NCBI GenBank assembly: GCA_964455745.1
Contig: CAYWBK010000001.1
Coordinates: 1 to 59,080 of the forward strand
Source of the DNA: an uncultured Armatimonadia bacterium
GTDB lineage: Bacteria > Armatimonadota > Zipacnadia > Zipacnadales > CAYWBK01
Direction: 5' to 3'
Length of the DNA: 59,080 nucleotides
Shown here: in pieces, positions 6,636 through 58,937 of the stretch
How the letters are laid out: the number at the start of each line of letters is the position of its first letter
Position numbering within the stretch: position 1 is the stretch's first letter
Made by a program: the position numbers and the translations under genes
The notes under the pieces: generated by a model
What the model saw: the letters and a program-made list of their open reading frames with translations, nothing else
Database searches by the model: none
What the model was told of the DNA's origin: nothing

Positions 6636-7952
6636 ATGAATATTGTCGTTCTCATGCTCGACAGCCTCCGCGCCGATTGTGTGGGCTGCTATGGCAATTC
6701 GGACATCCATACTCCGAACATGGACGCTTTCGCGGCGCAGAGCATCCGCTTCACCCGCGCGTATCCCGAATCGCCGAACACCATCCCCGCGCGCACGGCG
6801 CTGGTGACCGGCTGCTACACCTTCATGAACCGCCCCTGGATGCCGCTGCGCGCCGATGACCTGCACATCGCCGAGCTTCTCCGCGAGCAAGGCTACCTCA
6901 CCGCTGCGTTCTCGGATACGCCGTTCAACAATGGCGCGAACATGACGCGAGGGTTCGACGAGTTCGTCCACTTCCCGATGGGCAAGTGCCTTCCGCCCAT
7001 CGAAGGCGAGACGCCGACCGAATCGGACGCGTACTTCCCGCCGGACTACTCGCCCCCGAAGGAAGTCAACTACTACCTGCGGACGATGGCAAACCGCGAG
7101 ATCTGCACCCGCAAGTACGGCAAGTATCTACCGGCGCTGATGGCCGATCAGGTGAACGACTGGCTGACGAAGCACCGCGAGGACAAGTTTCTCCTGTGGA
7201 TCGACAGCTTCGGCCCCCACGAGCCGTGGGACGCGCCCGAACCGTACCGCAGCATGTACGAGCCGCGTTTCGGCTACGAGGGCCGATACCTGCCGATGCC
7301 GATGGCCCCCTCGATGCACTGGATGGGCCCCGGGGACATCGAGCACGTGCGGGCGCTATACAAGGCCAGCACCACCGAGACGGACGACCAGCTCGTCGGG
7401 CCGGTGATCGCGCACCTCGACAGCCTGGGCCTCGCCGAAGACACGCTGGTCATCCTGATGAGCGATCACGGGGAGGAGTTGGGCGACCACGGCACGATCC
7501 GCAAGTTCGGGTATCCGCTGTATGACGAACTGTCGCGGGTGGTGTGGATGATGCGCCTGCCGGGCACGATCCCCGCGGGCGTGTGCAGCCCGGCTTTGAT
7601 CTCGAACATCGACTTTCTGCCGACCATCGCGCAGATGGCGGGCTTCGAGCTTCCGCGCACGGTGGACGGGGTGAGCCTGGCGCCGCTGGTGAAGGGGGAG
7701 GCGCCTTCCGTGCACGAGAAGCTGTACATGGGGGCGTGGAATGTGCGTTCCGGGGTGATTTGGGATCGGTACAAGTTCATCGACAACCGTGGAGAGAAGC
7801 CGAACGAGTTGTTCGACATGCTGTGCGATCCCCTGGAGCGGCACAACCTGGTCGAGGAGATGCCCGACCTTGCGCACCAACTGCACCGGGACCTATGGGA
7901 TTTCCACCAGCCGTGGAGCCTGAAGCTGAGCCGGCATCATAAGGTGGGGTGA
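6636..7952 (+). CDS. Sulfatase-like (alkaline-phosphatase superfamily) hydrolase with Thr at the formylglycine position
   Basis: MNIVVLMLDSLRAD..., signature T49-I-P-A-R53, later MSDHGEELGDHG. Start chosen at the ATG at 6636, not the longer ORF from 6432. Confidence 0.8.
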   Translation: MNIVVLMLDSLRADCVGCYGNSDIHTPNMDAFAAQSIRFTRAYPESPNTIPARTALVTGCYTFMNRPWMPLRADDLHIAELLREQGYLTAAFSDTPFNNGANMTRGFDEFVHFPMGKCLPPIEGETPTESDAYFPPDYSPPKEVNYYLRTMANREICTRKYGKYLPALMADQVNDWLTKHREDKFLLWIDSFGPHEPWDAPEPYRSMYEPRFGYEGRYLPMPMAPSMHWMGPGDIEHVRALYKASTTETDDQLVGPVIAHLDSLGLAEDTLVILMSDHGEELGDHGTIRKFGYPLYDELSRVVWMMRLPGTIPAGVCSPALISNIDFLPTIAQMAGFELPRTVDGVSLAPLVKGEAPSVHEKLYMGAWNVRSGVIWDRYKFIDNRGEKPNELFDMLCDPLERHNLVEEMPDLAHQLHRDLWDFHQPWSLKLSRHHKVG

Positions 7953-10435: not shown

Positions 10436-13351
10436 ATGTCGCCGCTGTCACTGATTGCCCTGCTCCTCCCGCATTCGGTCCTCGGCGCAGAGGCCATCCG
10501 TCTGCCTGTGATCGCCGACACCTCGCTGCAGGCACATCCGAGCGAAGTCAACTGCAACAGCGGCGCGTCGAGCGTCATCCGCATCAAGGGCAATGAGCAC
10601 TACATGCTCCTGAAGTTCGATCTCGCGCCGCTGCAGGGACAGCGCGTCGCGCAGGCCACGCTGCACCTCCACAACGCCCACCCGAACCTGCTGCGCACGG
10701 TGGGCCTGTCTACCATCGCCGCCGACTGGCAGGAGGGCACCGGGACCGGCGGGCCGGCGACCGACGGCTGCACCTTCACCCGCGCCGTCTGGCCGGACAA
10801 GATGTGGGCCGGGCCGGGCAGCGACTTCCTCGATGTGGCGATCACCCACGGCAACACCATCGTCCGCTATGTGGACATCCGCCAGGAGCCGGACGACTGG
10901 TTCGCGGTCGATGTCGATCCGCTGCTCGTCGACGCGATGATGTGCGGCTTCTCGTATGGCCTGTGCCTGTCCGACGAGAAAGGCCAGACGATGGCCAACA
11001 ATGACGTCCACTCGCGCGAACAGAACGCCTTCGCCCCGTACATGGCGGTCGAACCCGAAATCCCCAGCGCGAGGCTGGCGGCGCTGACACTGGCCCCGGT
11101 CGCCGCCGAGCCCTGGCCGGCTGCGGCGACGTTCGACACCGGGGCGATCCGCGTGAGACTCACCTCGCCGGGCGCGCTGGGGTATCGGGTCCAGTGTGAC
11201 CCGGCATACTCCAGCAAGCGCACGGAACTGCCGCGCTACCTCATTCCCCAGCCTGCGCCTGCCGGGCAGGAGCAGTCCTTCGTCATCCCCGGCCTGAAGC
11301 CCGGTGTGCCTTACGAGGTCCGCGTGCAGGCCGTGGCGTACCTCGGTCGCGAGAGCAACGTGCAAGCGCTCGAGGCGACTGCGAGCGCGGCCAAGGCGAA
11401 GCCTGCTCCGCTGGCGGCCCCGCGGCCCGTTACCAAGGTACTTGCTCAGCCACAAGCAGTTGGCAGCCTACGCGCGTGGATCTGCCCGGCTGAATGCAAG
11501 GTGCATCCGGTAAGCGCCAATGTGCTTGAGGAGGTGGGCGCGGCCAGATATGGTGGACCGCTCGCCGGCGCGTATGCCGGACAGAATCCAGTGTGGCTGC
11601 GCGACACCGCTTACTGCAAAGGCGCGCGCGGCGAAGTCGTCGCAGTTCAACTCATCGTCGAGACGACCAAGGGCACGCCGGTCTCTTTCAGCGTCCAGTT
11701 CGCCCCCGGCGCGGCGAACCCGATGCCGAATCCCGTCGGCGTGTACCGCAACTGGTACGTGAATGACGGTGACTGGTACGCCGACTACATGGCCCCGATG
11801 CCCGACGGCAAGGCCATGATCCCCGCGCCGGACAATGCAGTTCCCGGCCAACGCAATCAGTCGTTCACCATTGTCTGGGAACTCCCGCGCGATGCCAGGC
11901 AGGGCGAGGCAACCGGCCAGGTGCGCGTTGTGCCTGATTCGGGCGGGCCCGGTCCCGTTATCCCGATCCGCATGTGGGTCCGCAACTTCGAGGTCCCCGC
12001 GAAGACGAGTTTCGAGCTGGACCTCAACTGCTACGGGCCGGTGTGCCAGGCCGCCAACTGGGACGATTATCTCGCCCGCGAGCGCAAGTTCTTCGCCGCG
12101 GCGCACGCCCTGCGCGGGACGCTCAACCCGCTGGGGTACTCGCACTCCGGCAACAACGACTTCGGCTGGGTACCGCAAGTCAGCGGCGCGGGCAAGGACA
12201 TCCGCGTCACCGACTGGAGCGTCTACGACCGGCACTGGGGGCCGTACCTCGACGGCAGCGCCTTCGGCGGGGTGAGGGCCGGGGTGCCGGTCTCACATAT
12301 CTATCTACCGCTGTACGAGGGCTGGCCGACGCCGATGGACGGCCATTACACCGGCGGGAACGACATCCGCAAGTACCCGGACAACATCATCGCCCACGCC
12401 ATGACGGCTCCGCCGGTCGAGCAGGCCTTCGACTCGACACTCAAGGAGGCGTTCGTATCGGTGACGCGGCAGTTCGTCGAGCACTTCGCCGAGCGCAGGT
12501 GGCTGCAGACCGACATGCAGTGCTACCAGAACGATAAGTACTACTACAAAGATGAGAAGTCGAACTTCCGGGGCATCTCCTGGTGGTTGCTCGACGAGCC
12601 GATGCACCGGGATGACTGGCTGGCGCTGCGGTTGTTTGCGGGGCTGTACCGGGAGGGCTTGAGGCTGGCAGGTGACACGCCGGCCCCACGGGGCCTGGCG
12701 GGCGAGACGCCCGCCCCACGCGTTGCGGCTGAAGGAATGCCCGCCGCACGCGGAGGCGAAGGGCCTGGCCCGCGCTTCATCTATCGGGGCGACATCTCGC
12801 GGCCCCAGTACCAGCGCGACTGGCTCGACGGGCGCATCGACCTGATGTGCGTCAGCTCGGAGTTGTTCGCGCACCCGCAATACTGCCGGCGTTTCCGCGA
12901 CCAGGGCGTGACCCTGTGGCATTACGGCGAGGCGAACCCGATCTCGCAGACGAATCTGACGGCGGTCGGCTGGGCGCTGAAGGCCTACTGCGCCGGGGCC
13001 GACGGCATCCTGCCCTGGAACTCCATCGGGGGTCCGGGGGCCCTCACGCAGCCGGACCCGACCGGGCTGCTCATCCCCGGAGACCGCTTCGGCGCCACGG
13101 GGCCGGTCGTCAGCCTGCGGCTTCTCGCGCTGTGTCGCGGGCAGGAGGATGTGGAGTACCTGAACCTGTTGGCGAAGCGACGCGGATATGACCGGGACCA
13201 GATGGCGCGACTGGTGAGCGACTTCGTCGGGCTGTCGGGCCGGCAGCAACAGACATCCGCCGAGGACGCCGGGCGTCTGCAGTTCGACATGCTATCGCCC
13301 GAGCAGTTCTCCGAACTGAGGGAGGCGGTCGCGCGGGAGTTGGAGAAGTGA
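10436..13351 (+). CDS. Secreted multidomain glycoside-hydrolase-like protein (N-terminal DNRLRE/CBM-like domain, FN3, DUF4091/GH123-like C-terminal part)
   Basis: SD AGGAGG lies 8 nt upstream. Signal peptide present. YMLLKFDLAPLQGQRVAQATLHLH, PGLKPGVPYEVRVQAV, ...GILPWNSIGG. Confidence 0.65.
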   Translation: MSPLSLIALLLPHSVLGAEAIRLPVIADTSLQAHPSEVNCNSGASSVIRIKGNEHYMLLKFDLAPLQGQRVAQATLHLHNAHPNLLRTVGLSTIAADWQEGTGTGGPATDGCTFTRAVWPDKMWAGPGSDFLDVAITHGNTIVRYVDIRQEPDDWFAVDVDPLLVDAMMCGFSYGLCLSDEKGQTMANNDVHSREQNAFAPYMAVEPEIPSARLAALTLAPVAAEPWPAAATFDTGAIRVRLTSPGALGYRVQCDPAYSSKRTELPRYLIPQPAPAGQEQSFVIPGLKPGVPYEVRVQAVAYLGRESNVQALEATASAAKAKPAPLAAPRPVTKVLAQPQAVGSLRAWICPAECKVHPVSANVLEEVGAARYGGPLAGAYAGQNPVWLRDTAYCKGARGEVVAVQLIVETTKGTPVSFSVQFAPGAANPMPNPVGVYRNWYVNDGDWYADYMAPMPDGKAMIPAPDNAVPGQRNQSFTIVWELPRDARQGEATGQVRVVPDSGGPGPVIPIRMWVRNFEVPAKTSFELDLNCYGPVCQAANWDDYLARERKFFAAAHALRGTLNPLGYSHSGNNDFGWVPQVSGAGKDIRVTDWSVYDRHWGPYLDGSAFGGVRAGVPVSHIYLPLYEGWPTPMDGHYTGGNDIRKYPDNIIAHAMTAPPVEQAFDSTLKEAFVSVTRQFVEHFAERRWLQTDMQCYQNDKYYYKDEKSNFRGISWWLLDEPMHRDDWLALRLFAGLYREGLRLAGDTPAPRGLAGETPAPRVAAEGMPAARGGEGPGPRFIYRGDISRPQYQRDWLDGRIDLMCVSSELFAHPQYCRRFRDQGVTLWHYGEANPISQTNLTAVGWALKAYCAGADGILPWNSIGGPGALTQPDPTGLLIPGDRFGATGPVVSLRLLALCRGQEDVEYLNLLAKRRGYDRDQMARLVSDFVGLSGRQQQTSAEDAGRLQFDMLSPEQFSELREAVARELEK
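12665..12753. repeat. Three REP-like units embedded in frame in the CDS
   Basis: ctggcaggtgacacgccggccccacgg, cctggcgggcgagacgcccgccccacgcg and gaaggaatgcccgccgcacgcgg encode LAGDTPAPRGLAGETPAPRVAAEGMPAARGG. The same repeat occurs in intergenic regions at 38.7, 40.0 and 44.6 kb. Confidence 0.6.
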
Positions 13352-49071: not shown

Positions 49072-49324
49072 CGGCCCTCTGTTGCCGGACCACATGCGCA
49101 AGTATGCGCGTTTCCGGTACGTGCCGGAGCTATCGCCCGGCGAGCACACCGTCAAGTTCACGGTCAAGGCGCTGCCCGAGGGCACATCGTGCTATCTGGG
49201 GGAGTTCCTGATCGCGGGGATGGCGGTGAGGTGAGGCGGGAGGTGCCTCATCGTCCGATACTCCACCTGCGGTCTGGACCGAGCCGTCTGCAGTGCGGCC
49301 GCGAATGTGAAGGGATGCCCTGCT

Positions 49325-50455
49325 ATGGAAGAACCGGACGGCCCGTCTTCGACATCCAAATCCGAGACTGACAGGTGGCTCAGCGAGTGGCAAGAGCGCC
49401 ACCGCGTGCTGTGGGCTGAGACCGGCGACCCCATGTACGCAGAGAGGCAGGCGACCATCGAACAGCGGATCGCGCACTGGCCCAGCGAGTGGGGCGACGA
49501 AATGGAGGTCACCATCTACGGGGACTTCATTCCTCCGCCGACCGAATTGCACGTCGAGGCACTTGGCATCACGGTGTACCCCGAGGAGATAGACAATGCA
49601 CTCACCCGGCAGGCAAGCTGTACCCTGCGGGCCAGGGTCAGGGTCGAGGCGAGGACCCTGGACGCCGTCGCTGATGCAGCCCGCCGGGTCAACTCCCTTC
49701 TGGGGGCCTGGACGCTTGTCTCGTGGGGCAACAGTGCCTTCGGGTGGTTGGACTACTTCACTCGCGTGGATACCGGCTGTGGACTGGCGGTATTCGACAA
49801 TGAGCACCTGCCGGTGGCCGTCAAGGCCATCTTGGAGTTGCCGAAAGGGTCGAAGAAGCACGTCGATGCCGCTCTCTACTGGGTGCGCGCCGCACGACGG
49901 CCGAGCCTGGAGCCAGACCGTTGGAGCGGCCTTCTGCACCACTACGCCAACTACTGGAATGCGTTTGAATGCTTGGTCGCGGCGGCGTGCGACCTGTGCC
50001 CTCCGCGGAGGCTGTCGAAAGATGAGAAGCAGGCGCGGATCGACGAACTCATGGCTCGACGCTCAGGCATCCTCACGCCGGAAGACATTGAGCGCTGCTA
50101 TCACGATATCGTGAACCCAGGCCCCACCGCACGGGCGCGCCACGCTCTCGGCGTGTGCTTTCCCCCCAACCCCTACGGGCATCTAGCGCAATCATACGCA
50201 GAGGAGTGTTTCGACCGGAAGGACAAACGGAATCGGCTCTACCAGATACGCAACGACATTAATCACGGTGCGATCGACGCCGAGAGCCATGAAGAGCAGA
50301 CCCGGATTCCCGCGCGCCTTGAGCTGCTGTGGCTGATTGTGTGGCAGATGTTTGGGGCTCTGCTTCCCGTCCCGGTGCCTGTGCCGACGGCCTACGAGAG
50401 GCGGAAGCAGACCTGGGCAGGGCCGCCCGCTCCGCAGGACCAAGGCGGGGAGTAG
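49325..50455 (+). CDS. Hypothetical protein with a C-terminal HEPN-like Rx4H motif
   Basis: RNRLYQIRNDINHGAID, with preceding helices ALYWVRAA and YANYWNAFECLVAAA. Alternative GTG start at 49307. Confidence 0.55.
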   Translation: MEEPDGPSSTSKSETDRWLSEWQERHRVLWAETGDPMYAERQATIEQRIAHWPSEWGDEMEVTIYGDFIPPPTELHVEALGITVYPEEIDNALTRQASCTLRARVRVEARTLDAVADAARRVNSLLGAWTLVSWGNSAFGWLDYFTRVDTGCGLAVFDNEHLPVAVKAILELPKGSKKHVDAALYWVRAARRPSLEPDRWSGLLHHYANYWNAFECLVAAACDLCPPRRLSKDEKQARIDELMARRSGILTPEDIERCYHDIVNPGPTARARHALGVCFPPNPYGHLAQSYAEECFDRKDKRNRLYQIRNDINHGAIDAESHEEQTRIPARLELLWLIVWQMFGALLPVPVPVPTAYERRKQTWAGPPAPQDQGGE

Positions 50456-50495: not shown

Positions 50496-50683
50496 GCCGG
50501 GGCAGTCTGCTCTGCCTATCGCAGGTGCGGTCCCTCGGTGAACCGTCCACAGCCTGCAACGCAGCGCAGCAGGCGACATCGGTGTCAACTCACGCCGTCC
50601 TCTGCCGAAGCAGGTCCTTCCCCCTTCCCCGTCCAATACTCCCCCTCGAAGTCTGGAGCTTCAAGAGGGGACCCCACTACCAC

Positions 50684-52216
50684 ATGCTTGCTCGTATCCA
50701 CTCCGCTGCCATCTATGGCATCGACGCTTATCCTGTGCAGGTTGAAGTTGACATCAGCAATGGTCTTCGCAAGTTCGTGATCGTCGGGCTGCCCGATGCC
50801 GCCGTGCGCGAGAGCGAGGAACGCGTCAACGCTGCTTTGCGCAACAGCGGCTTCGAGGCGCCCATTGACCGTGTGGTCGTGAACCTCGCCCCCGCCGACA
50901 TCCACAAGCAAGGCCCGGCGTTCGACTTGCCCATCGCCATCGGGATACTCGTCGCGATGGGGCAGGTCAACATCGACAAGCTCGACGACATCGCCATCGT
51001 CGGGGAGCTGGCGCTCGACGGCATGGTGCGGCCGATCAGCGGCGTCCTGCCGATGGCCCTCGGGGCGCGCGAATGGGGGAAGCGGGCCATCGTCGTGCCG
51101 CCGGACAACGGCAAGGAAGCGGCGGTCGTCGATGACTTCGAGGTCTACACCGCCGACACGCTGTATGATTGCGTCTCGCTTTTGGAGCAGGGCCTTCTCG
51201 CGGACCCGGTGCGTGTCGAGCCGGAGGAGATGTCGCTGGATGTATCCGAATACGCGGTGGACTTCGCCGATGTGCGCGGGCAGGAGCATGTGAAGCGGGC
51301 GCTGGAGGTCGTCGCCGCCGGCGGGCACAACCTGCTGATGATCGGGCCGCCGGGGTCGGGCAAGACGATGCTGGCGCGGCGGCTGCCGACGATCCTCCCG
51401 CCGATGAGCCTCCCCGAGGCGCTGGAGGTCACGAAGCTGTACAGCGTGGCGGGCATGTTGCCCAAAAGCCAGGCGCTCATGCGCGAGCGGCCCTTCCGCG
51501 CCCCGCACCACACGGTCAGCACGCCGGGGCTTGCCGGCGGCGGGTCGATCCCCCGACCCGGCGAAGTCAGCCTCGCGCACAATGGAGTGCTGTTCCTCGA
51601 CGAGCTGCCGGAGTTCAGCCACGCGGCGTTGGAAGTCATGCGCCAGCCGCTGGAGGACGGGCATGTGACCATCGCGCGTGCGGCGGCGACGCTGAGCTTC
51701 CCGGCGAAGGTGCAACTCATCGCCGCGATGAACCCGTGCCCCTGCGGCTTCCACACCGACCCGACGCGGCAGTGCACCTGCAACGCGGGGCTGGTTGCGC
51801 GGTATCTGAAGCGCGTGTCGGGGCCGCTGTTGGACCGGATCGACGTGCATATCGAGGTGCCGCGCCTCAAGCCGGACGAGATCATGGACAAGCGCAACGG
51901 CGAACCCTCGACCGCGATTCGCGACCGGGTGATGCGGGCGCGGGCGCTGCAAAGCGAGCGGTTCGCCACGATCCCAATCCACTGCAATGCCCAGATGAAC
52001 TCGAAGATGCTGCGCAAGTTCTGCAATCTGCCGGAGGACGTGGAGGCTTTGCTGCGGGCGGCCATCGACCAGTTCGGCCTATCGGCGAGGGCGCACGACC
52101 GGATCGTCCGCGTAGCGCGAACCATCGCGGACCTCGACGGCAGCGAAACCATCGGCGTCGCCCACTGCGCGGAGGCGATTCAATACCGGAGCCTGGACCG
52201 GAAGCTTTGGGGGTAA
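50684..52216 (+). CDS. comM: YifB/ComM family Mg-chelatase-like ATPase
   Basis: MLARIHSAAIYGIDAYPVQVEVD, GPPGSGKTMLA, GVLFLDELPEF, C-terminal RSLDRKLWG. Confidence 0.92.
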   Translation: MLARIHSAAIYGIDAYPVQVEVDISNGLRKFVIVGLPDAAVRESEERVNAALRNSGFEAPIDRVVVNLAPADIHKQGPAFDLPIAIGILVAMGQVNIDKLDDIAIVGELALDGMVRPISGVLPMALGAREWGKRAIVVPPDNGKEAAVVDDFEVYTADTLYDCVSLLEQGLLADPVRVEPEEMSLDVSEYAVDFADVRGQEHVKRALEVVAAGGHNLLMIGPPGSGKTMLARRLPTILPPMSLPEALEVTKLYSVAGMLPKSQALMRERPFRAPHHTVSTPGLAGGGSIPRPGEVSLAHNGVLFLDELPEFSHAALEVMRQPLEDGHVTIARAAATLSFPAKVQLIAAMNPCPCGFHTDPTRQCTCNAGLVARYLKRVSGPLLDRIDVHIEVPRLKPDEIMDKRNGEPSTAIRDRVMRARALQSERFATIPIHCNAQMNSKMLRKFCNLPEDVEALLRAAIDQFGLSARAHDRIVRVARTIADLDGSETIGVAHCAEAIQYRSLDRKLWG

Positions 52217-52267
52217 TACATGAATGTGGTATACTTGCACCCTGCGGAGCAATCGGGAGGTGACCAC

Positions 52268-52492
52268 ATGACACGCACGGCGGTGATTGACGAGATAGAC
52301 AAGCGACTCGAAGCGCTACCGCGCTACCTGCAGGAGCGCGTGTTGGGCTTTGCCGAGGGTCTCGCGGCCACTTTCCCTAAGGGTATGTCCGGGCAGGAGG
52401 CCCTGCAGATCGCCGGCACGATCTCCTCGGAGGAAGCGGCTCGGATGATGGCGGTGATCGAGGAGGAGTTCGAGAAGGTGGATGGAGCGTGA
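52268..52492 (+). CDS. DUF2281/VapB-like antitoxin-type small protein, apparently C-terminally truncated
   Basis: SD GGGAGGTGA lies before the ATG at 52268. LEALPRYLQERVLGFAEGLA and AGTISSEEAARMMAVIEEEFEKVD. No toxin gene follows. Confidence 0.5.
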   Translation: MTRTAVIDEIDKRLEALPRYLQERVLGFAEGLAATFPKGMSGQEALQIAGTISSEEAARMMAVIEEEFEKVDGA

Positions 52493-52888
52493 CACGCCCG
52501 ATCCGATCTCTCCCGCTGCTGTCTCTCGTCGCCGTGGTACCGCAGTTCGCAGCTTCAGACCCCGGCTTCATCCTCACTTCCCCTGGACTCATCGTCTCTA
52601 TCTCCCCGAACGGGCAGGCCGTCGCCGAGCGGACCAGGCCTCGCGGCTTCGCACGCGAGGTGCGCATCACTGTGGGACGCAGCTAATCCTCTCAGCCGGT
52701 CTGGACCGACCCGCTGGCGCCAGCGCCGCTCGATGATCTGCCCCTCACCCACGGCGGCGGGCATCTCTCCCGCCCCTCGTACTCCATCCCCCTCGCGACC
52801 CTGCCGGGCCCCCAGAGCGGCGCCACCGGCGTCACCCACTGCGCCGAGGCGATCCAGTGCCGGAGCCTGGACCGGAAGCTTCTGGGGG
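52489..52888 (+). pseudogene. Chimeric remnant: internally deleted 5' part of a paralogue of the 55615 gene fused to a copy of the comM 3' end
   Basis: MTRPIRSLPLLSLVAVV..SPNGQAVAERTRPRGFAREVRI, then ..WTDPLAPAPLDDLPLTHGGG..SYSIPLATL..PQS, then GVTHCAEAIQCRSLDRKLLG. Confidence 0.6.
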
Positions 52889-52924
52889 TAAAACGAACGG
52901 GCGAGCCATCTCTGGCCCGCCCGG
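52889..52924 (-). terminator. Rho-independent terminator of the DUF1559 gene (copy A)
   Basis: Minus sense cgggcgggcc-agagat-ggctcgcccg followed by ttcgtttta. Confidence 0.6.
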
Positions 52925-52950
52925 GTGTGCGGCCTCAATTACATCCCCGC

Positions 52951-53628
<678 letters not shown>

Positions 53629-54084
53629 ACCAACCACATCCTTTCCATCCGGCTGGGGAGTAATGGATCGGTTGACGCAACCACCGCCCGCAACGGACGG
53701 TGACTTCCAGAAGGGAATGCGTCGCGTGAATGCTGCTGCTGATCGTTCAGGTTCAACGCATGGAACAGACAGTCGTCGTGGGGTGGACCACGTTATGCTT
53801 GAGCGCTTTGACATGCCATCCGCGGAGACGCGGTCGTCCGTGACGACTAAGAATTCGCCGTAGATTGCCGCATTCCTGCTTGTAGTCAGCGGATGGAAAT
53901 GGTAGGGATAGGCGTTCTTTATGTGGAGTCTGGCAATGGCAACGAAGGCCTGCAGCAGCCCGCGATAGTATTGTATGCTCAGCCGGTACATGGGGAGGCC
54001 GCGAGAAACAACCTGCACTTCCCGAGGACCTGCGAACCAGGGAGGGCCAAATGAAAGGTGACCGCCATCGAGGGACCCGGGACA
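53629..54084. other. Conserved about 450-nt leader/divergent control region, copy A
   Basis: Aligns along its length with 55155-55614 through long identical blocks. No conserved ORF. Confidence 0.5.
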
Positions 54085-54302
54085 GTGGACCGACCAGTCA
54101 TTTGTGCCGTGCTACTGCTTGCCGCCGTCGCGCCAGCGCCGCTCGATGATCTGCCCCTCACCCACGGCGGCGGGCATCTCTCCCGCCCCTCGTACTCCAT
54201 CCCCCTCGCGACCCTGCCGGGCCCCCAGAGCGGCGCCACCGGCGTGGCTCACTGCGCCGAGGCGATCCAGTGCCGGAGCCTGGACCGGAAGCTTCTGGGG
54301 GG
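54085..54302 (+). pseudogene. Chimeric remnant, copy B (signal-peptide stub, internal fragment, comM 3' tail)
   Basis: [15 protein letters not shown], then APAPLDDLPLTHGGG..SYSIPLATL..PQS, then GVAHCAEAIQCRSLDRKLLG. Confidence 0.6.
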
Positions 54303-54338
54303 TAAAACGAACGGGCGAGCCATCTCTGGCCCGCCCGG
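54303..54338 (-). terminator. Rho-independent terminator of the DUF1559 gene (copy B)
   Basis: Same hairpin as at 52898-52923, followed by a minus-sense T-rich run. Confidence 0.6.
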
Positions 54339-54380
54339 TTCCAACGCTGCCCCCCCAAGAGAGAAGCCTGACCTGATCGT

Positions 54381-55154
54381 CTAGTAGTCGTGGGGGTCCT
54401 GGCCGAGGTCCCATTGGGAACCGCCCAGGAAGAACCAGTTGATGTCGTAGTTCGGGCAATTGAACGAGCTAACCTGGGGAACGCTCTGCACCTTGACGTG
54501 GCCGTCCATGTAGCAGGCATTGGAGACGCCTGCGGCTCCCTTGTTCGTCGTGTCCCAGCAGTAGTAGGTGTTGCCGCCCCAGTGCCACATCTCCTCGATG
54601 AGCATCGCCATCTGCGCCGGGTGCAGCGGCGTCGAGTCCTTGATGCTCTTATTGTTGACGGTAGCATACGTGTCGAGGGCGTGACGCCAGTAATATGAGC
54701 CGCGCTGCTGCCCCGATATCCAGCGCGCATCTTGATTGTCGGACGGGCAGATGAACACCTGGCTGTTCTTCACGTAAGGGTTCAAAACGAGGCCCATGCC
54801 GGCGAGAGAGTCGTGATTGTCGTCATTCCACACTCGGATCGCGTACGCGTCGATGGCCATTCCCCCTCCGGCGGTTCCTCCGTCTCCGCCGTTGGGGACA
54901 TACCAGGCGCCGTACGGTTGGGAGGACGCGTAGCTGCTGACGCGGCAGTCGGGGAAGCACCCGTCGTAATCTGTGCAGTAAGATAGCATCGCCAAGCCCA
55001 ATTGCTTGAGATTCGAGGCGCAACTCGACTGACGCGCCTTCTCCCGCGCGCGGGCGAAGACAGGGAAGAGGATCGCCGCCAATATGGCAATGATCGCGAT
55101 CACCACCAACAATTCGATGAGTGTAAAGCCGTGTCGTCTGGTCAAACTAACCAC
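54381..55154 (-). CDS. Prepilin-type N-terminal cleavage/methylation domain protein (DUF1559 pseudopilin), copy B
   Basis: ..[49 protein letters not shown]-terminal MDGH. Start is GTG at 55154, or more likely TTG at 55145, which is positionally equivalent to the ATG of copy A. Confidence 0.85.
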
Positions 55155-55573
55155 ATCCTTTCCGTCCAGTTGGGAAATGGTAGATCGGTTGACGCAACCA
55201 CCGCCCGCAACGGACGGTGACTTCCAGGAGGGAATGCATCGCGTGAATGCTGCTACTCATCGTTGAGGCTCAACACATAGAACGGACAGCCGCCTTGGGG
55301 TGGGTCACGCTGTGCTTGAGCGCCCTGATATACCGTCCGGTAAGGCATGCATATCCACGGCTAGTAGGAATTCGCCGTAGCTTGCCGCATTCCTGCTTTG
55401 AATTGACTGATGGAAATGGTAGGGTTAAGGGTTCTTTGTGTGGAGTCAAGCAATGGCGGCGAAGGCCTGCAGCAGCCAGCGATAGTATGGTACACTGAGC
55501 CGGTACATGGGGTGAGGCAAAGAGGACGAACCTGCACTTCCCGAGGATCGGGGAACCAAGGAGGGCCAGACGA
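55155..55573. other. Conserved about 450-nt leader/divergent control region, copy B
   Basis: See 53629-54084. Confidence 0.5.
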
Positions 55574-55618
55574 ATGGCGGCAATCATCGAGGGGGCCGGG
55601 ATGGTGCGAGGCCAGTGA
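55574..55618 (+). CDS. Possible 14-codon upstream ORF coupled to the main gene
   Basis: SD AAGGAGG (55558-55564) lies 9 nt before the ATG. Encodes MAAIIEGAGMVRGQ. Its TGA overlaps the GTG start of the main ORF (GTGA at 55615-55618). Confidence 0.25.
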   Translation: MAAIIEGAGMVRGQ

Positions 55619-58600
55619 ACCGACCAGCCACTGCTTTCGTGCTCCTACTTGCCGCCGCGGTACCAGCGCTTGCGGGAGCCAGCAGCTCGCTCGGCGTCTC
55701 AGCCCCCGGCCTCACCGTTTGCGTCTCCCCGAACGGCGACGTCATGGCCCGGCGCATCGGCCCCAAAGGCTTCATCCGTGAGGTACGTCTTTCCAGCGCT
55801 CTCACGAAGTGCAGACCGGACGGTGAAGCGCGGGTCGTCGCAGTTGGGGACCGCGTCGACGTCTCGCAGGCGTGGGTGCAGGCCGAGACGGACCGGCGGT
55901 GCGTGCTGATCCAGCGTTTCTCCCCCACTCCGAGCAGCATCCGGTGGGAGATCGAGGTGCTGGGCGATGGCGCGCCGTGGACTGCGCCCATCGAGACGCG
56001 AATGCAGTGGCCGGCAGCGGGGACGGCCACCTTCTGGACCGCATGGGGCAGCAGCAAGCCCTCGCAGCCGGGGTGGACCGACCCGCTGGCGCCGGTGCCG
56101 TTCGATGATCTGAACCTCACCTACGGCGGCGTGGATTTCGCCCGCCCCGACTCGTACTCCATCCCCCTCGCCACAGTGCTCGACCCCCAGAGCGACACCG
56201 GGCTGAGCCTGGCGCTGTCGCCCGAGGACCTGAGCCTCGACACGACGCTGACCACGACGTGCGGCGGGGAGATCGTCTTCTCCCGCGCGAACCGGCGGAT
56301 CAGCGCCAGATCGCCGGTGCGGTTCGCGATGGACCTGGTGCCCCACCGGGCCGACTGGCGCGAGGCGCTGGGGTGGATGGTCGCGCGCTACCCGGCCTAT
56401 TTCGACCCGCCGAATCCGAGAGCGGATGATGTCGCCGGGTGCGGCGCGTATTCGGCTTATGAGGGCGAACTGGATGTGAAGAAGCTCACCCGGATGGCGT
56501 TCTCGGCGAACTGGAAGGCGAGCTTCGACTTCCCACACATGGGGATGTACTTGCCGCCTGTGGGCGGCCCGCTGGTGGGCGACACGGTGGAATGGCAGCG
56601 GTTCGGCGGGGGCAAGACGACGATCCGGCGCATGGCCGAGTATTCGCGGCAGATGCGTGCGGCGGGCTTCCATGTGCTCAACTACTTCAACGTGACCGAA
56701 TACGGCGCGGGGGTGCAGTTCCCGCCGCCGCCGAGAAAGGCGAAAAGCGACGCCGATCTGTGGCGGGATGCGAACGACTTCTTGTGGTACGCCATCCCGG
56801 ATGCAGTACTGTACGATGCGGTGGGGCGGCCGTACGGGTCGTGGGAGGGCGCTGTCGCCACCGATTGCGCCGGGCCGAAGTATCAGGCGTTCTTGCTGGA
56901 TCAGGCGCGGCGGCATGTGCGGGAGTTGCCCGAAAGCTCGGGCATCTGCATCGACCGGCTCGACTGGACGCGGCTGTACAACCCGCGCGCCGATGACGGA
57001 GCGAGCTGGATCAACGGCAAGCCTGCGAGGTCGCTCATCGTCTCGTGGCAGGACACGCTGGGCAAGTTAGGGCCGATCATGCACGCGGGGGGCAAGGTCA
57101 TCTACGTGAACCCGCTCAACCGGCGGCTGGAGCTTCTGCGGCAGGTGGACGGCCTCTACGACGAGATGGGCGGGATGCCGCACAGCGTCAACCTGTGCGC
57201 GCTGATGGGGGTGCGCAAGCCGGTGATGGAGTGGACCGGGAGCGTGGCCGACCTGCAGCCGAACCCCGACCCGGTATTCCAGCGCTGCCTGTATATGGGC
57301 GTCTTCCCCACCGTGCCTTTCCCGGCGAACGATCACACGATCAACCCCGACGCATGGGCCGAGGGGTATTACCTACAATACGGGCCGCTCCTGGACGCCC
57401 TGCGCGGGCGGAAGTGGGTGCTGAGGCCGCACGCGATCGAGGTCGAGGGCGCGGCGGCCAAGGCGAACCTGTTCGAGGTTCCCGGCGGGTATGTCGTGCC
57501 GGTGACTTTCGGCGGGGATCGGCCCAGCGCGACGGTCGTGCTGCGCGGACTGCCGCGCCTTGAGGGCCAGCGTGAATGGCGCGTCGAGGTCTGCCAACCG
57601 GGGGGCCGGTGGCGATGGTTGCCCTCTGTGGCGGCTGGGGGCTTGATCCGCCTGGAGGCGCCGCTGCGAAGGGGATGCGCGATGGTGAGACTGTCGCACA
57701 CATGGATGCTGCCGAAAGACCGCTGCTTCACCGGCGAGGCGGCGCTGAAAGCCGGAACCCTGATTGCCGGCGCGACCTTGCGTTACACGCTGGACGGCAG
57801 CGAGCCGACAGGGACATCGCCAGTGTATGCCAGGCAGATCAAGCTGCGGGCAACGACGATGGTGAGGCTCGCAGTCTTTCGTGATGGTCAACGGCTGGGG
57901 CGCGCGCTGTCGACCAAGTATGTGAAGACCGCACCGTCCGCTCCGACGATCACACCCCCGCGAGCGGTGTTCGGGCGCGAAGTCACCGCACGGCTGGACG
58001 CGCCGTTGGAGAGACGCGGGGCTTGTATTCGATACACGCTCGACGGGAGCGACCCGACGGCAGCCTCGTCGCAGTACACCAGCCCGCTGAAGCTGACTGA
58101 GACCACCACCGTCAAGGCGCGGGTATGGGTGCCGGGTGCTGGATTCGGGCCGGTGCAGACCGCCATCTTCGCCAAGACCCCGCCGCCGCCACCGCCGGCC
58201 GATGTGTCAATCGGCGATCTGCAGCCGCTGGTGTCGACTGTTGGCTGGGGCGGATACGCCAAGCGGCACCGCTCGATTGAGGGGCGGCCCCTGTCGATTG
58301 CCGGACGCGCATACGCCAAGGGCATGGGGGTCAGCGCGATCTCGGAGCTGGTGTACGACCTCAAGCCGGAGTACAAGGCCTTCGCCGCCGCCGCCGGGCT
58401 TGATGATGAAATGCGGGACTGGACGCTCGGCAGTATCACCTACCAGGTGTTCGTCGACGGCAAACTACTGCACGAAAGCCCGGTGCTGCGGCAGGGCGAG
58501 GCATGGTTTATCAACGTGCCGATCCCGCCGGGCAGCAAGCAGATACGGCTCGTGGTCGGCGATGCGGGTGATGGCATCAACTGCGACCACGGCGACTGGG

Positions 58601-58626
58601 GAGACGCGGGGTTTCTGGTGAGGTGA
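55615..58626 (+). CDS. Secreted multidomain glycoside-hydrolase-like protein with two chitobiase/hexosaminidase-C-like domains and a C-terminal NPCBM domain
   Basis: Signal peptide. GATLRYTLDGSEPT and ACIRYTLDGSDPT repeats. C-terminal LSIAGRAYAKGMGV..ITYQVFVDGKLL..GDAGDGINCDHGDWGDAGF. Confidence 0.8.
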   Translation: MNRPATAFVLLLAAAVPALAGASSSLGVSAPGLTVCVSPNGDVMARRIGPKGFIREVRLSSALTKCRPDGEARVVAVGDRVDVSQAWVQAETDRRCVLIQRFSPTPSSIRWEIEVLGDGAPWTAPIETRMQWPAAGTATFWTAWGSSKPSQPGWTDPLAPVPFDDLNLTYGGVDFARPDSYSIPLATVLDPQSDTGLSLALSPEDLSLDTTLTTTCGGEIVFSRANRRISARSPVRFAMDLVPHRADWREALGWMVARYPAYFDPPNPRADDVAGCGAYSAYEGELDVKKLTRMAFSANWKASFDFPHMGMYLPPVGGPLVGDTVEWQRFGGGKTTIRRMAEYSRQMRAAGFHVLNYFNVTEYGAGVQFPPPPRKAKSDADLWRDANDFLWYAIPDAVLYDAVGRPYGSWEGAVATDCAGPKYQAFLLDQARRHVRELPESSGICIDRLDWTRLYNPRADDGASWINGKPARSLIVSWQDTLGKLGPIMHAGGKVIYVNPLNRRLELLRQVDGLYDEMGGMPHSVNLCALMGVRKPVMEWTGSVADLQPNPDPVFQRCLYMGVFPTVPFPANDHTINPDAWAEGYYLQYGPLLDALRGRKWVLRPHAIEVEGAAAKANLFEVPGGYVVPVTFGGDRPSATVVLRGLPRLEGQREWRVEVCQPGGRWRWLPSVAAGGLIRLEAPLRRGCAMVRLSHTWMLPKDRCFTGEAALKAGTLIAGATLRYTLDGSEPTGTSPVYARQIKLRATTMVRLAVFRDGQRLGRALSTKYVKTAPSAPTITPPRAVFGREVTARLDAPLERRGACIRYTLDGSDPTAASSQYTSPLKLTETTTVKARVWVPGAGFGPVQTAIFAKTPPPPPPADVSIGDLQPLVSTVGWGGYAKRHRSIEGRPLSIAGRAYAKGMGVSAISELVYDLKPEYKAFAAAAGLDDEMRDWTLGSITYQVFVDGKLLHESPVLRQGEAWFINVPIPPGSKQIRLVVGDAGDGINCDHGDWGDAGFLVR

Positions 58627-58742: not shown

Positions 58743-58937
58743 TGTTTAGCGACTTCTTCCCTTGGACCATGTGGCAGCGCGATTCATCGCGCTAAATGCG
58801 GGGCGAACTGCCATCCTCGTATCACGCCATCGGCTGCGGGTAAGCATTTGGTCGAAGTAGAAGCGCAGGTAGCTATACGATGTGATCCGCGCGATGAATC
58901 GCGCTGCCACATGGTCTGAGAGAGGTGCCGCTAAACA
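58743..58937. repeat. REP doublet / MITE-like element with 28-bp perfect inverted repeats
   Basis: gaccatgtggcagcgcgattcatcgcgc (58765-58792) pairs with gcgcgatgaatcgcgctgccacatggtc (58889-58916). Outer tgtttagcg / cgctaaaca. Each arm holds its own 7-bp hairpin. Confidence 0.75.

Follow-up and report, generated by a model that had tools for sequence, protein, structure and literature searches.

We analysed a 59,080-nucleotide (nt) stretch of DNA (contig CAYWBK010000001.1, forward strand; hereafter the window, in whose coordinates all positions are given), in which, between comM and the gene for a large secreted protein, the 3' tail of the former and the 5' end of the latter each occur three times, the parent genes included, so as to form units of 674, 1413 and ~1960 nt. 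The intact comM (yifB) gene occupies 50684..52216 on the plus strand, within an open reading frame (ORF) that at its longest begins at 50525. It encodes a Mg-chelatase-like AAA ATPase that matches the Pfam families Mg_chelatase, ChlI and Mg_chelatase_C and scores 636 bits with TIGR00368, for a cut-off of 362. The genuine 3' tail of comM, T0 (52142..52216, plus strand, with an aligned copy spanning 52142-52213), is the parent of two pseudo-tails found farther downstream, T1 and T2, which are 83-85% identical to it. The other parent gene, G0 (55615..58626, plus strand), is intact and encodes a secreted protein of 1003 amino acids (aa), a 960-aa version of which is recorded on five contigs. Its NPCBM, CHB_HEX_C_1 and Fn3_assoc domains all lie in the C-terminal third, and residues 1-695 (about 690) had no match among Pfam, NCBIfam or PDB sequences. 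The label 'glycosidase', given to G0 in an earlier description of this locus made from the DNA alone (referred to below as the sequence-only reading), thus appears unproven, since the recognisable domains are carbohydrate-binding or accessory only.

Layout of the interval between comM and the large gene

The first unit contains a small plus-strand ORF of 74 aa in its interior (52268..52492), followed by G1 (52489..52815, plus strand), a dead fragment derived from the large-gene 5' end, to which the pseudo-tail T1 (52816-52887), a 72-nt copy of the end of comM, is fused. Next come an intrinsic terminator on the minus strand (52898..52923, with an 11-bp stem and a T-run at 52897-52888), the convergent DUF1559 prepilin-like gene D1 (52951..53637, minus strand, with a GTG start at 53637 or an ATG at 53628) and a leader or divergent promoter region of 420 nt, L1 (53638..54057). 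The same succession is then repeated with the second dead fragment G2 (54058..54228, plus strand), the pseudo-tail T2 fused to it (54229-54300), a second minus-strand terminator (54312..54337, again followed by a T-run), the DUF1559 prepilin-like gene D2 (54381..55154, minus strand), which belongs to a subfamily other than that of D1, and the leader or divergent promoter region L2 (55155..55614), which is 81% identical to L1 and is followed by G0. Two near-identical junction blocks are embedded in this arrangement: J1 (52717..52924), composed of the 3' part of G1, T1 and the terminator, and J2 (54130..54338), which includes T2. Successive units are collinear, in that a single alignment pairs 52717-54139 with 54130-55669; unit 1 shares only its two ends. 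No further copies of these blocks were found elsewhere in the 59-kb window.

The sequence-only reading had proposed that the 5' end of the large gene recurs twice upstream as internally deleted fragments, which rejoin large-gene homology and are then fused to the comM tail, and our alignments bear this out in both fragments. In G1, the 5' part (52489-52673) is 59% identical to 55615-55800 at the nucleotide level and 44% at the aa level, the 3' part (52674-52815) is 83% identical to 56046-56190, the equivalent of ~55801-56045 between them is deleted, and the frame is interrupted by a stop codon at 52684-52686. In G2, the equivalent of ~55670-56088 is missing, and the 5' part (54058-54129), which is ~80% identical to 55585-55660, meets the junction-type 3' part at the sequence CCAGCGC (54133-54139). 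The hairpin and the convergent DUF1559 gene that had been noticed after each fusion are also present, but the hairpins (52923-52898 and 54337-54312) are the minus-strand intrinsic terminators of the DUF1559 genes and not those of the plus-strand fusions.

G2 also begins an open chimeric ORF of 108 aa (54058-54384, plus strand), in which the signal peptide of the large gene is followed by the fragment, the comM tail and read-through sequence. This ORF sits behind the duplicated upstream region of the large gene, with no plus-strand terminator ahead of D2; it could give rise to a spurious protein call and to antisense transcription into D2.

The small ORF of unit 1 belongs to a widespread family of ~75-aa proteins, with 145 representative clusters at E <= 1e-3, mostly matched over their full length of 73-78 aa, and its relatives show weak matches to DUF2281 and VAPB_antitox. 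There is no toxin gene after it, its stop codon overlapping the start of G1. We also considered whether this ORF might be the ancestral upstream neighbour of the large gene, but the local alignment score of 13 was not significant against shuffled sequences (mean 10.8, maximum 17). More distant genomes were of little help in reconstructing the original neighbourhood: comM or a DUF1559 gene lay beside none of the large-gene homologues whose contexts we inspected (56-69% identity), these relatives being too distant to inform, and a comM scan of genome contigs returned best relatives of only 51-58% identity from many phyla, with no usable synteny.

The arrangement does recur in other assemblies. 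L001 (JGI 3300041809) and L002 (ENA ERZ27250145) each reach from one end of the interval to the other, with 99.94% identity to the window over 11 kb, and the same arrangement is found at 99.9% identity in L001, L002, L003, L093, L097 and L098, which come from other assemblies and samples; of these, L093, recovered from another sample in a metagenome scan for the terminator hairpin, covers D1, junction 1, fragment 1 and the small ORF. It might be objected that the repeats are a product of assembly, that is, a collapsed or chimeric repeat, given that the window is itself a metagenome contig, that several short-read contigs end within the repeats (L003 at 54069, L097 at 54163, L098 at 54250, and L004 and L005 at 55198) and that marker states in the junction blocks vary between assemblies. 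This explanation can practically be discounted. True repeats, too, make short-read contigs start or end within them. The full three-unit arrangement is reproduced in L001 and L002, from JGI and from ENA with its other assembler naming, parts of it are seen in four further samples, and a strain that is 5-16% diverged, depending on the segment, shares the chimeric junction and the gene order. Since this diverged strain, L094, inherits the rearrangement, the structure is not an assembly artefact, and we conclude that the repeat structure is real.

L094 (ENA ERZ25039472, contig_84368, 5894 nt), found through its cluster membership, is a different strain, roughly 90-95% identical to the window, with values of 84-96% by segment and with many single-base indels. 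Its order of terminator, D1, L1, G2 fused to a tail, terminator, D2, L2 and large gene is that of the window, so that the comparison of synteny suggested by the sequence-only reading comes out in favour of a shared, inherited arrangement. The internal structure of G2 is also identical in layout in the two strains, and both junction structures therefore predate their split. In L094, the genuine comM tail is directly followed by the terminator and by the sequence that flanks D1 on its 3' side, which is the simple convergent start point that a duplication model predicts, and the small ORF and G1 (52216-52815 in the window) are absent. G1 keeps parts of the large gene that are missing from G2 (the equivalents of 55670-55800 and 56046-56088), and over the region of the G1 5' part the intact large genes of L094 and the window are 92-95% identical to each other. 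Because it retains sequence that G2 lacks and is far diverged from its parent, G1 cannot have been derived recently from G2 or from G0. Most simply, the state with three units would be an old one, and L094 would have lost unit 1 through recombination between the tail repeats.

Composition and identity of the junction blocks

At both fragment-to-tail joins, at 52816 and 54229, the large gene (up to the equivalent of 56199) passes into the comM tail (from the equivalent of 52142) through a 9-nt microhomology, AGCGxxACC, which reads AGCGAAACC in comM (52142-52150), AGCGACACC in the large gene (56191-56199) and AGCGGCGCC in the junction copies. The comM gene of L094 reads AGCGGCACC at this position, an 8/9 match to the large gene. 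The head-to-tail duplication inferred in the sequence-only reading, with a new join of the large gene to the comM tail, is supported; the join does lie in a microhomology, as had been considered possible there, and the 9-nt AGCGxxACC adjoins the caccgg/ccatcgg patch to which it had been tentatively assigned. The other short sequence involved, CCAGCGC, occurs at 55663 (55663-55669), 52720 and 54133, within a 19-nt patch of partial homology.

A computed alignment of J1 with J2 (offset 1413) gave the same differences as the earlier manual one, namely three substitutions, clustered at 52833, 52834 and 52836, and an extra G in the run before 54305. Elsewhere in the unit, the leader and the 5' end of the gene are 79-82% identical (ungapped), and the bodies of the DUF1559 genes are 40-55% identical and essentially unalignable as DNA. 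Identity in the junctions is thus well above that in the rest of the unit: no more than three differences at 208 sites, compared to a background of 20.5% in the other alignable parts, has a probability of P = 4.6e-17, and none of the permutations (0/20000) reached the observed junction identity. Both edges of the block of identity coincide with the end of the homology between the units, as would be expected for conversion that is limited by homology.

With leaders that are 81% identical, the junctions would be expected to be ~80% identical had they simply diverged since the duplication; the observed value within the window genome is 98.5%. By comparison, J2 of the window and J2 of L094, the one comparison genome, share 92.8% identity over the fragment and 88.4% over the tail. 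T1 and T2 share the derived states ATC>ACC, GCG>GCC, TACC>TGCC and CTTT>CTTCT, which are absent from T0 and from both tails of L094, and the pseudo-tail of L094 is itself 98.5% identical to the genuine comM tail. Paralogues are therefore closer than orthologues in both lineages (98.5% compared to 88-93% for the window), each in a different direction, a pattern characteristic of repeated gene conversion. These observations support conversion at the junctions, one of the two explanations put forward in the sequence-only reading.

The few differences between the window and L001 or L002 over the 11 kb cluster in the fragment and junction of unit 1 (52685, CTA and 52816). The three bases CTA, located after 52775, are present in J1 of L001, L002 and L093 and missing from the window. 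The single junction block of L094, equivalent to J2, also has CTA, and the parent gene has CGA at this position, which makes the three extra bases look ancestral. J1 of the window carries the junction-2 state (no CTA), and L097 has junction-1 markers behind D2. The junction copies can be told apart at three sites: the CTA indel after 52775 or 54188, GTCACC versus GTGGCT at 52831-36 or 54244-49, and the length of the G-run before 52891 or 54305. These marker differences between assemblies could be conversion alleles or path switches of the assembler within the 208-nt repeat.

The near-identity of the junctions might also be accounted for by purifying selection on a function of the block, be it that of the terminator together with a regulatory element downstream, of a small or antisense RNA or of the chimeric 108-aa protein, and not by conversion. 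In keeping with this idea, each DUF1559 terminator lies within its block, and the chimeric ORF of unit 2 remains open for 108 codons, starts with the signal peptide of the large gene and has the duplicated promoter region upstream. However, the same frame is broken by a stop in unit 1, and the differences between the junctions and their parents are spread 7/4/2 over the codon positions, with no third-position excess, which suggests that the junction DNA is drifting as non-coding sequence. RNA folding of the junction block on both strands revealed no excess structure beyond the terminator (z = -1.0 and -0.4), and an Rfam search of 52000-56400 gave no match at E-values up to 1. Furthermore, the L094 orthologue is 7-12% different, its tail part matching genuine comM as conversion would leave it, and the population variants cluster in junction 1. 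Selection on a function of the whole block is thus an unlikely cause of its identity, and apart from the terminator hairpin, the junction blocks are non-functional relics.

The row of small single-gene units with repeated boundary sequences is also reminiscent of integron cassettes, and the units could in principle be cassettes or islets inserted site-specifically at the comM 3' end, by an integron-like mechanism or by accretion at an att site, each bringing a replacement tail. The 3' ends of comM are integration targets in other bacteria, and such insertions would account for the three comM tails in direct orientation, one per unit, for the small size of the units, with one gene each, and for the lack of one unit in L094. 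An att-site model does not predict, however, that each unit should end with a fragment of the downstream large gene; the boundaries here are fragments of both flanking chromosomal genes, joined in 7-9-nt microhomologies, and, unlike integron cassettes, each gene has its own promoter. We found no integrase, transposase or recombinase in or beside the units, a result that covers both the ORFs and the called genes between 47 kb and the window end, as well as L001 and L002. An inverted-repeat search recovered only the terminator hairpins and chance pairs, with no attC-like repeats. The metagenome scan for the terminator hairpin, in which the variant of the L092 contig (see below) was allowed, yielded one contig, from the same locus, in a collection that lacks several of the contigs found via their proteins. 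There is thus no sign of a dispersed repeat family for the hairpin, and the blocks are not repeated elsewhere in the window. All this makes site-specific insertion very improbable, and 'cassette-like', the expression used in the sequence-only reading, is appropriate as a descriptive term only, in view of the lack of an integrase, of attC-like sites, of dispersed copies and of structured RNA.

Origin of the DUF1559 genes

D2 matches both PF07963 (N_methyl) and PF07596 (SBP_bac_10/DUF1559) above the gathering score and D1 matches PF07596; TIGR02532 matches both, and both combine the prepilin cleavage/methylation motif G|FTLIE with the DUF1559 domain. As noticed from the DNA, they diverge strongly past a conserved start: the proteins are near-identical over the first ~40 residues and 44% identical overall. 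The closest relative of D1 elsewhere is 76% identical at the aa level (P0122), followed by a series at 54-67%, and that of D2 is 72% identical (P0241), followed by a series at 50-63%, with D1 ranking only ~88th among the matches of D2. In a neighbour-joining tree of the variable part, D1 and D2 fall into separate clades. Since each is closer to outside relatives than to the other, and the clades are separate, rapid diversification of the two genes after the duplication, as envisaged in the sequence-only reading, is refuted.

D1 has the structure of a mosaic: D2-type sequence, which matches D2 itself and the DNA ahead of the D2 orthologue in L092, makes up the leader, the ribosome-binding site and the first 80-120 nt, and D1-type sequence, which matches the orthologues in L089 and L090, makes up the body from nt ~80-120 of the coding sequence to the stop. 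The orthologues in L089 and L090 lie in unrelated contexts. In L092, the D2 orthologue P0241 lies in the middle of three closely spaced DUF1559 genes, an array that is closed by a hairpin homologous to the D1 terminator; DUF1559 genes are commonly found in tandem arrays of this kind, separated by short spacers. The last of the three L092 genes, a candidate for the D1 orthologue, was ruled out as such by the tree. In both leaders there are ~100 nt of degenerate sequence from the 3' end of another DUF1559 gene of the array, an orthologue of the first gene in L092 (~53737-53832 in L1 and ~55252-55334 in L2, minus strand), recognisable by DNA homology to L092 that scores 41 and 50, compared to a maximum of 17 for shuffled sequences, and by a 13-aa tblastn match (E = 0.011). 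A hidden Markov model built from 184 DUF1559 proteins found nothing in the six-frame translations of both leaders. On the 3' side of D2, 15 nt of L092-type inter-gene spacer lead directly into the array-end terminator. Taken together, the mosaic, the leader relics and the D2 3' spacer speak for a tandem array in the ancestor, first duplicated and later reduced by the loss of members.

Alternatively, a D1-type paralogue situated elsewhere in the genome might have supplied the body of D1 through ectopic gene conversion, with the conserved 5' end and the last codons providing the homology. The type of D1 does change within the conserved 5' region, and a second time precisely at the stop codon, where both subfamilies have ACGACnnCTAG, and both the unrelated contexts of its orthologues in L089 and L090 and the finding that the third L092 array gene is not D1-type are compatible with a dispersed donor. 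No donor copy is known from the part of the genome that was searched. Because tandem arrays with short spacers are the norm, a deletion between neighbouring 5' ends would also be mechanistically simpler, and the succession of D2 3' spacer and array-end terminator is what one would expect after deletion of a downstream array member. We therefore regard ectopic conversion as possible, but not as the probable route. The replacement of cargo suggested in the sequence-only reading holds to the extent that D1 is a mosaic; as an account of the cargo, duplication of a two-gene array followed by reciprocal loss does as well as ectopic replacement.

A bolder reading is that the conserved segments serve as portable homology arms for swapping DUF1559 gene bodies, in a recombination-based diversification locus. 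The arms would consist, on one side, of the leader and first ~45 codons and, on the other, of the junction block together with the terminator and the region of the stop codon, and the junction blocks would have been retained for promoting exchange or the gain and loss of units. The D1 mosaic, the strain-specific divergence of the C-terminal third of D2 and the difference in unit number fit this reading and none of them requires it; we consider it unlikely. If true, it would provide a hugely expanded and uncharacterised family of cell-envelope proteins with a locus for diversification by recombination.

Some further features of these genes and their relatives may be mentioned here. The segment 54339-54600 (3' flank and C-terminal third of D2) is only 50-78% identical to L094, compared to 92-97% for D1, L1 and most of L2, which would mean that D2 has either evolved fast here or undergone another local recombination event. 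A 45-nt block is 100% identical between L1 (53666-53710) and L2 (55183-55227), within leaders that are otherwise 81% identical. It is located ~30-75 nt upstream of the DUF1559 starts and contains the motif GGTTG-N3-CAACC, making it a candidate promoter or operator, and it is the only stretch of the leaders long enough to seed homologous recombination. In L092, right after the array-end terminator (6780-6991), a ~55-nt unit, GGCGTCCTCACCCCCCTACCCCCCTCTCCCTGCGCCTTCGGCTAAGGAGAGGG, occurs twice within ~200 nt and may be a small dispersed repeat element. In L090, directly after the D1 orthologue (10715-10934), there is a further DUF1559 5' end with a TTG start that was missed by the public gene calls, so that the array there is longer than annotated. 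The DUF1559 family itself is almost unstudied, with few mentions in the literature searched.

A model for the formation of the locus

We propose, with a probability of about 80%, that the locus arose through old, serial, microhomology-mediated tandem duplications, and that these were followed by deletions, fusion of paralogues and continuing gene conversion between short direct repeats. As part of the same explanation, the duplicated interval would be that between comM and a convergent DUF1559 array, which itself lay divergently upstream of the NPCBM-domain gene. The ancestor would have resembled L094, with the comM stop followed by a minus-strand terminator, one or more DUF1559 genes, the leader and the large gene; the comM end of this order is seen in the sequence of L094, and the remainder is our reconstruction. 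Illegitimate recombination between the two occurrences of the 9-mer AGCGxxACC, one in the comM tail and the other ~580 nt from the start of the large gene, would then have generated a head-to-tail duplication, together with a dead fusion of a large-gene 5' fragment to the comM tail. The join itself is plainly visible in both junctions; recombination of this kind is its presumed mechanism. The second junction may have been created by a duplication joined at CCAGCGC, or by an unequal crossover combined with an internal deletion, fragment 2 having a younger 5' part and a copied 3' part.

The units would subsequently have been left with DUF1559 genes of two old subfamilies. The mosaic observed in D1 was most likely caused when neighbouring paralogues of a tandem array recombined at their conserved 5' ends, the complementary copy being lost from the other unit. 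From then on, RecA-type gene conversion would have held the 208-nt junction blocks near-identical in the lineage of the window. In that of L094, conversion would have reset the pseudo-tail to the genuine comM sequence, and unit 1 would have been lost, most simply by tail-by-tail recombination.

Several points weigh against this model or limit its detail. The identities are heterogeneous (59% for the G1 5' part, 81% for the leaders and 81-84% for the junctions compared to their parents) and the segments short, which makes for crude dating, and two strains do not suffice to fix the order and number of the events. The model leaves unexplained why unit 1 holds an antitoxin-like small ORF in place of a terminator, DUF1559 gene and leader. 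The choice between loss and gain of unit 1 depends on the divergence and completeness of G1, and horizontal acquisition would be an alternative to its loss from L094. The indels of L094 may reflect a noisy long-read contig, in which case its fine-scale states are less certain, and the CTA and L097 marker differences may be due to assembler path switching and not to conversion alleles. Finally, selection on the terminator could contribute to the conservation of ~40 of the 208 nt.

The processes invoked are all familiar from other bacteria. Microhomology-mediated (illegitimate) tandem duplication and unequal crossing-over are known from the join points of duplications in Salmonella and E. coli, and most bacterial duplications are unstable and quickly lost. 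The locus resembles such classical duplications in the head-to-tail joining of downstream to upstream sequence within 7-9-nt microhomologies, and in a difference in unit number between strains that can be explained by recombination between repeats. It differs from typical ones in being old (~20% divergence of the leaders, and common to a strain that is 5-16% diverged), fixed and endowed with a different gene in each unit. The tufA/tufB genes and the rRNA operons are examples of concerted evolution by gene conversion, and share with our junctions both the greater closeness of paralogues within a genome than of orthologues and the sharply bounded, homology-limited blocks of identity; here, however, the converted sequence is non-functional debris plus a terminator, is only 208 nt long and occurs at a distance of 1.4 kb. 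The Neisseria pilE/pilS system, in which pilin antigenic variation is achieved by recombination with promoterless silent cassettes, is similar in its conserved 5' end, variable body and mosaic genes formed by recombination in the conserved 5' end. Unlike the silent copies of that system, D1 and D2 are complete, each with a leader, a ribosome-binding site and a terminator, and there are no partial silent copies in the window. Nor was a G4-type initiator seen, though no search was aimed at one. The mosaic of D1 is moreover common to two strains, which implies an evolutionary timescale and not phase variation, and DUF1559 proteins are not known to form surface pili. The locus is thus a well-resolved new instance of known processes and not a new kind of genetic system. 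It provides a clean natural case in which tandem duplication, microhomology joins, fusion of paralogues and gene conversion have reshaped a bacterial locus, and shows how the very large DUF1559 pseudopilin family can acquire copies that are transcribed independently, from a duplicated promoter to a duplicated terminator of their own. Its relevance to annotation lies in two pseudogene fragments, one of which can be called as a 108-aa protein, in a repeat that breaks short-read assemblies and in a mosaic gene.

Two observations concern the flanks of the locus. On the 5' side of comM, the window contains an ORF of 382 aa (49307-50455, plus strand; 376 aa in public assemblies), with no Pfam or NCBIfam match. 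On the 3' side of the large gene, there is a 35-nt inverted repeat (58758-58792 and 58889-58923) whose arms are 91% complementary, and just ahead of it, at 58748 and 58755, the window differs from all five other assemblies.

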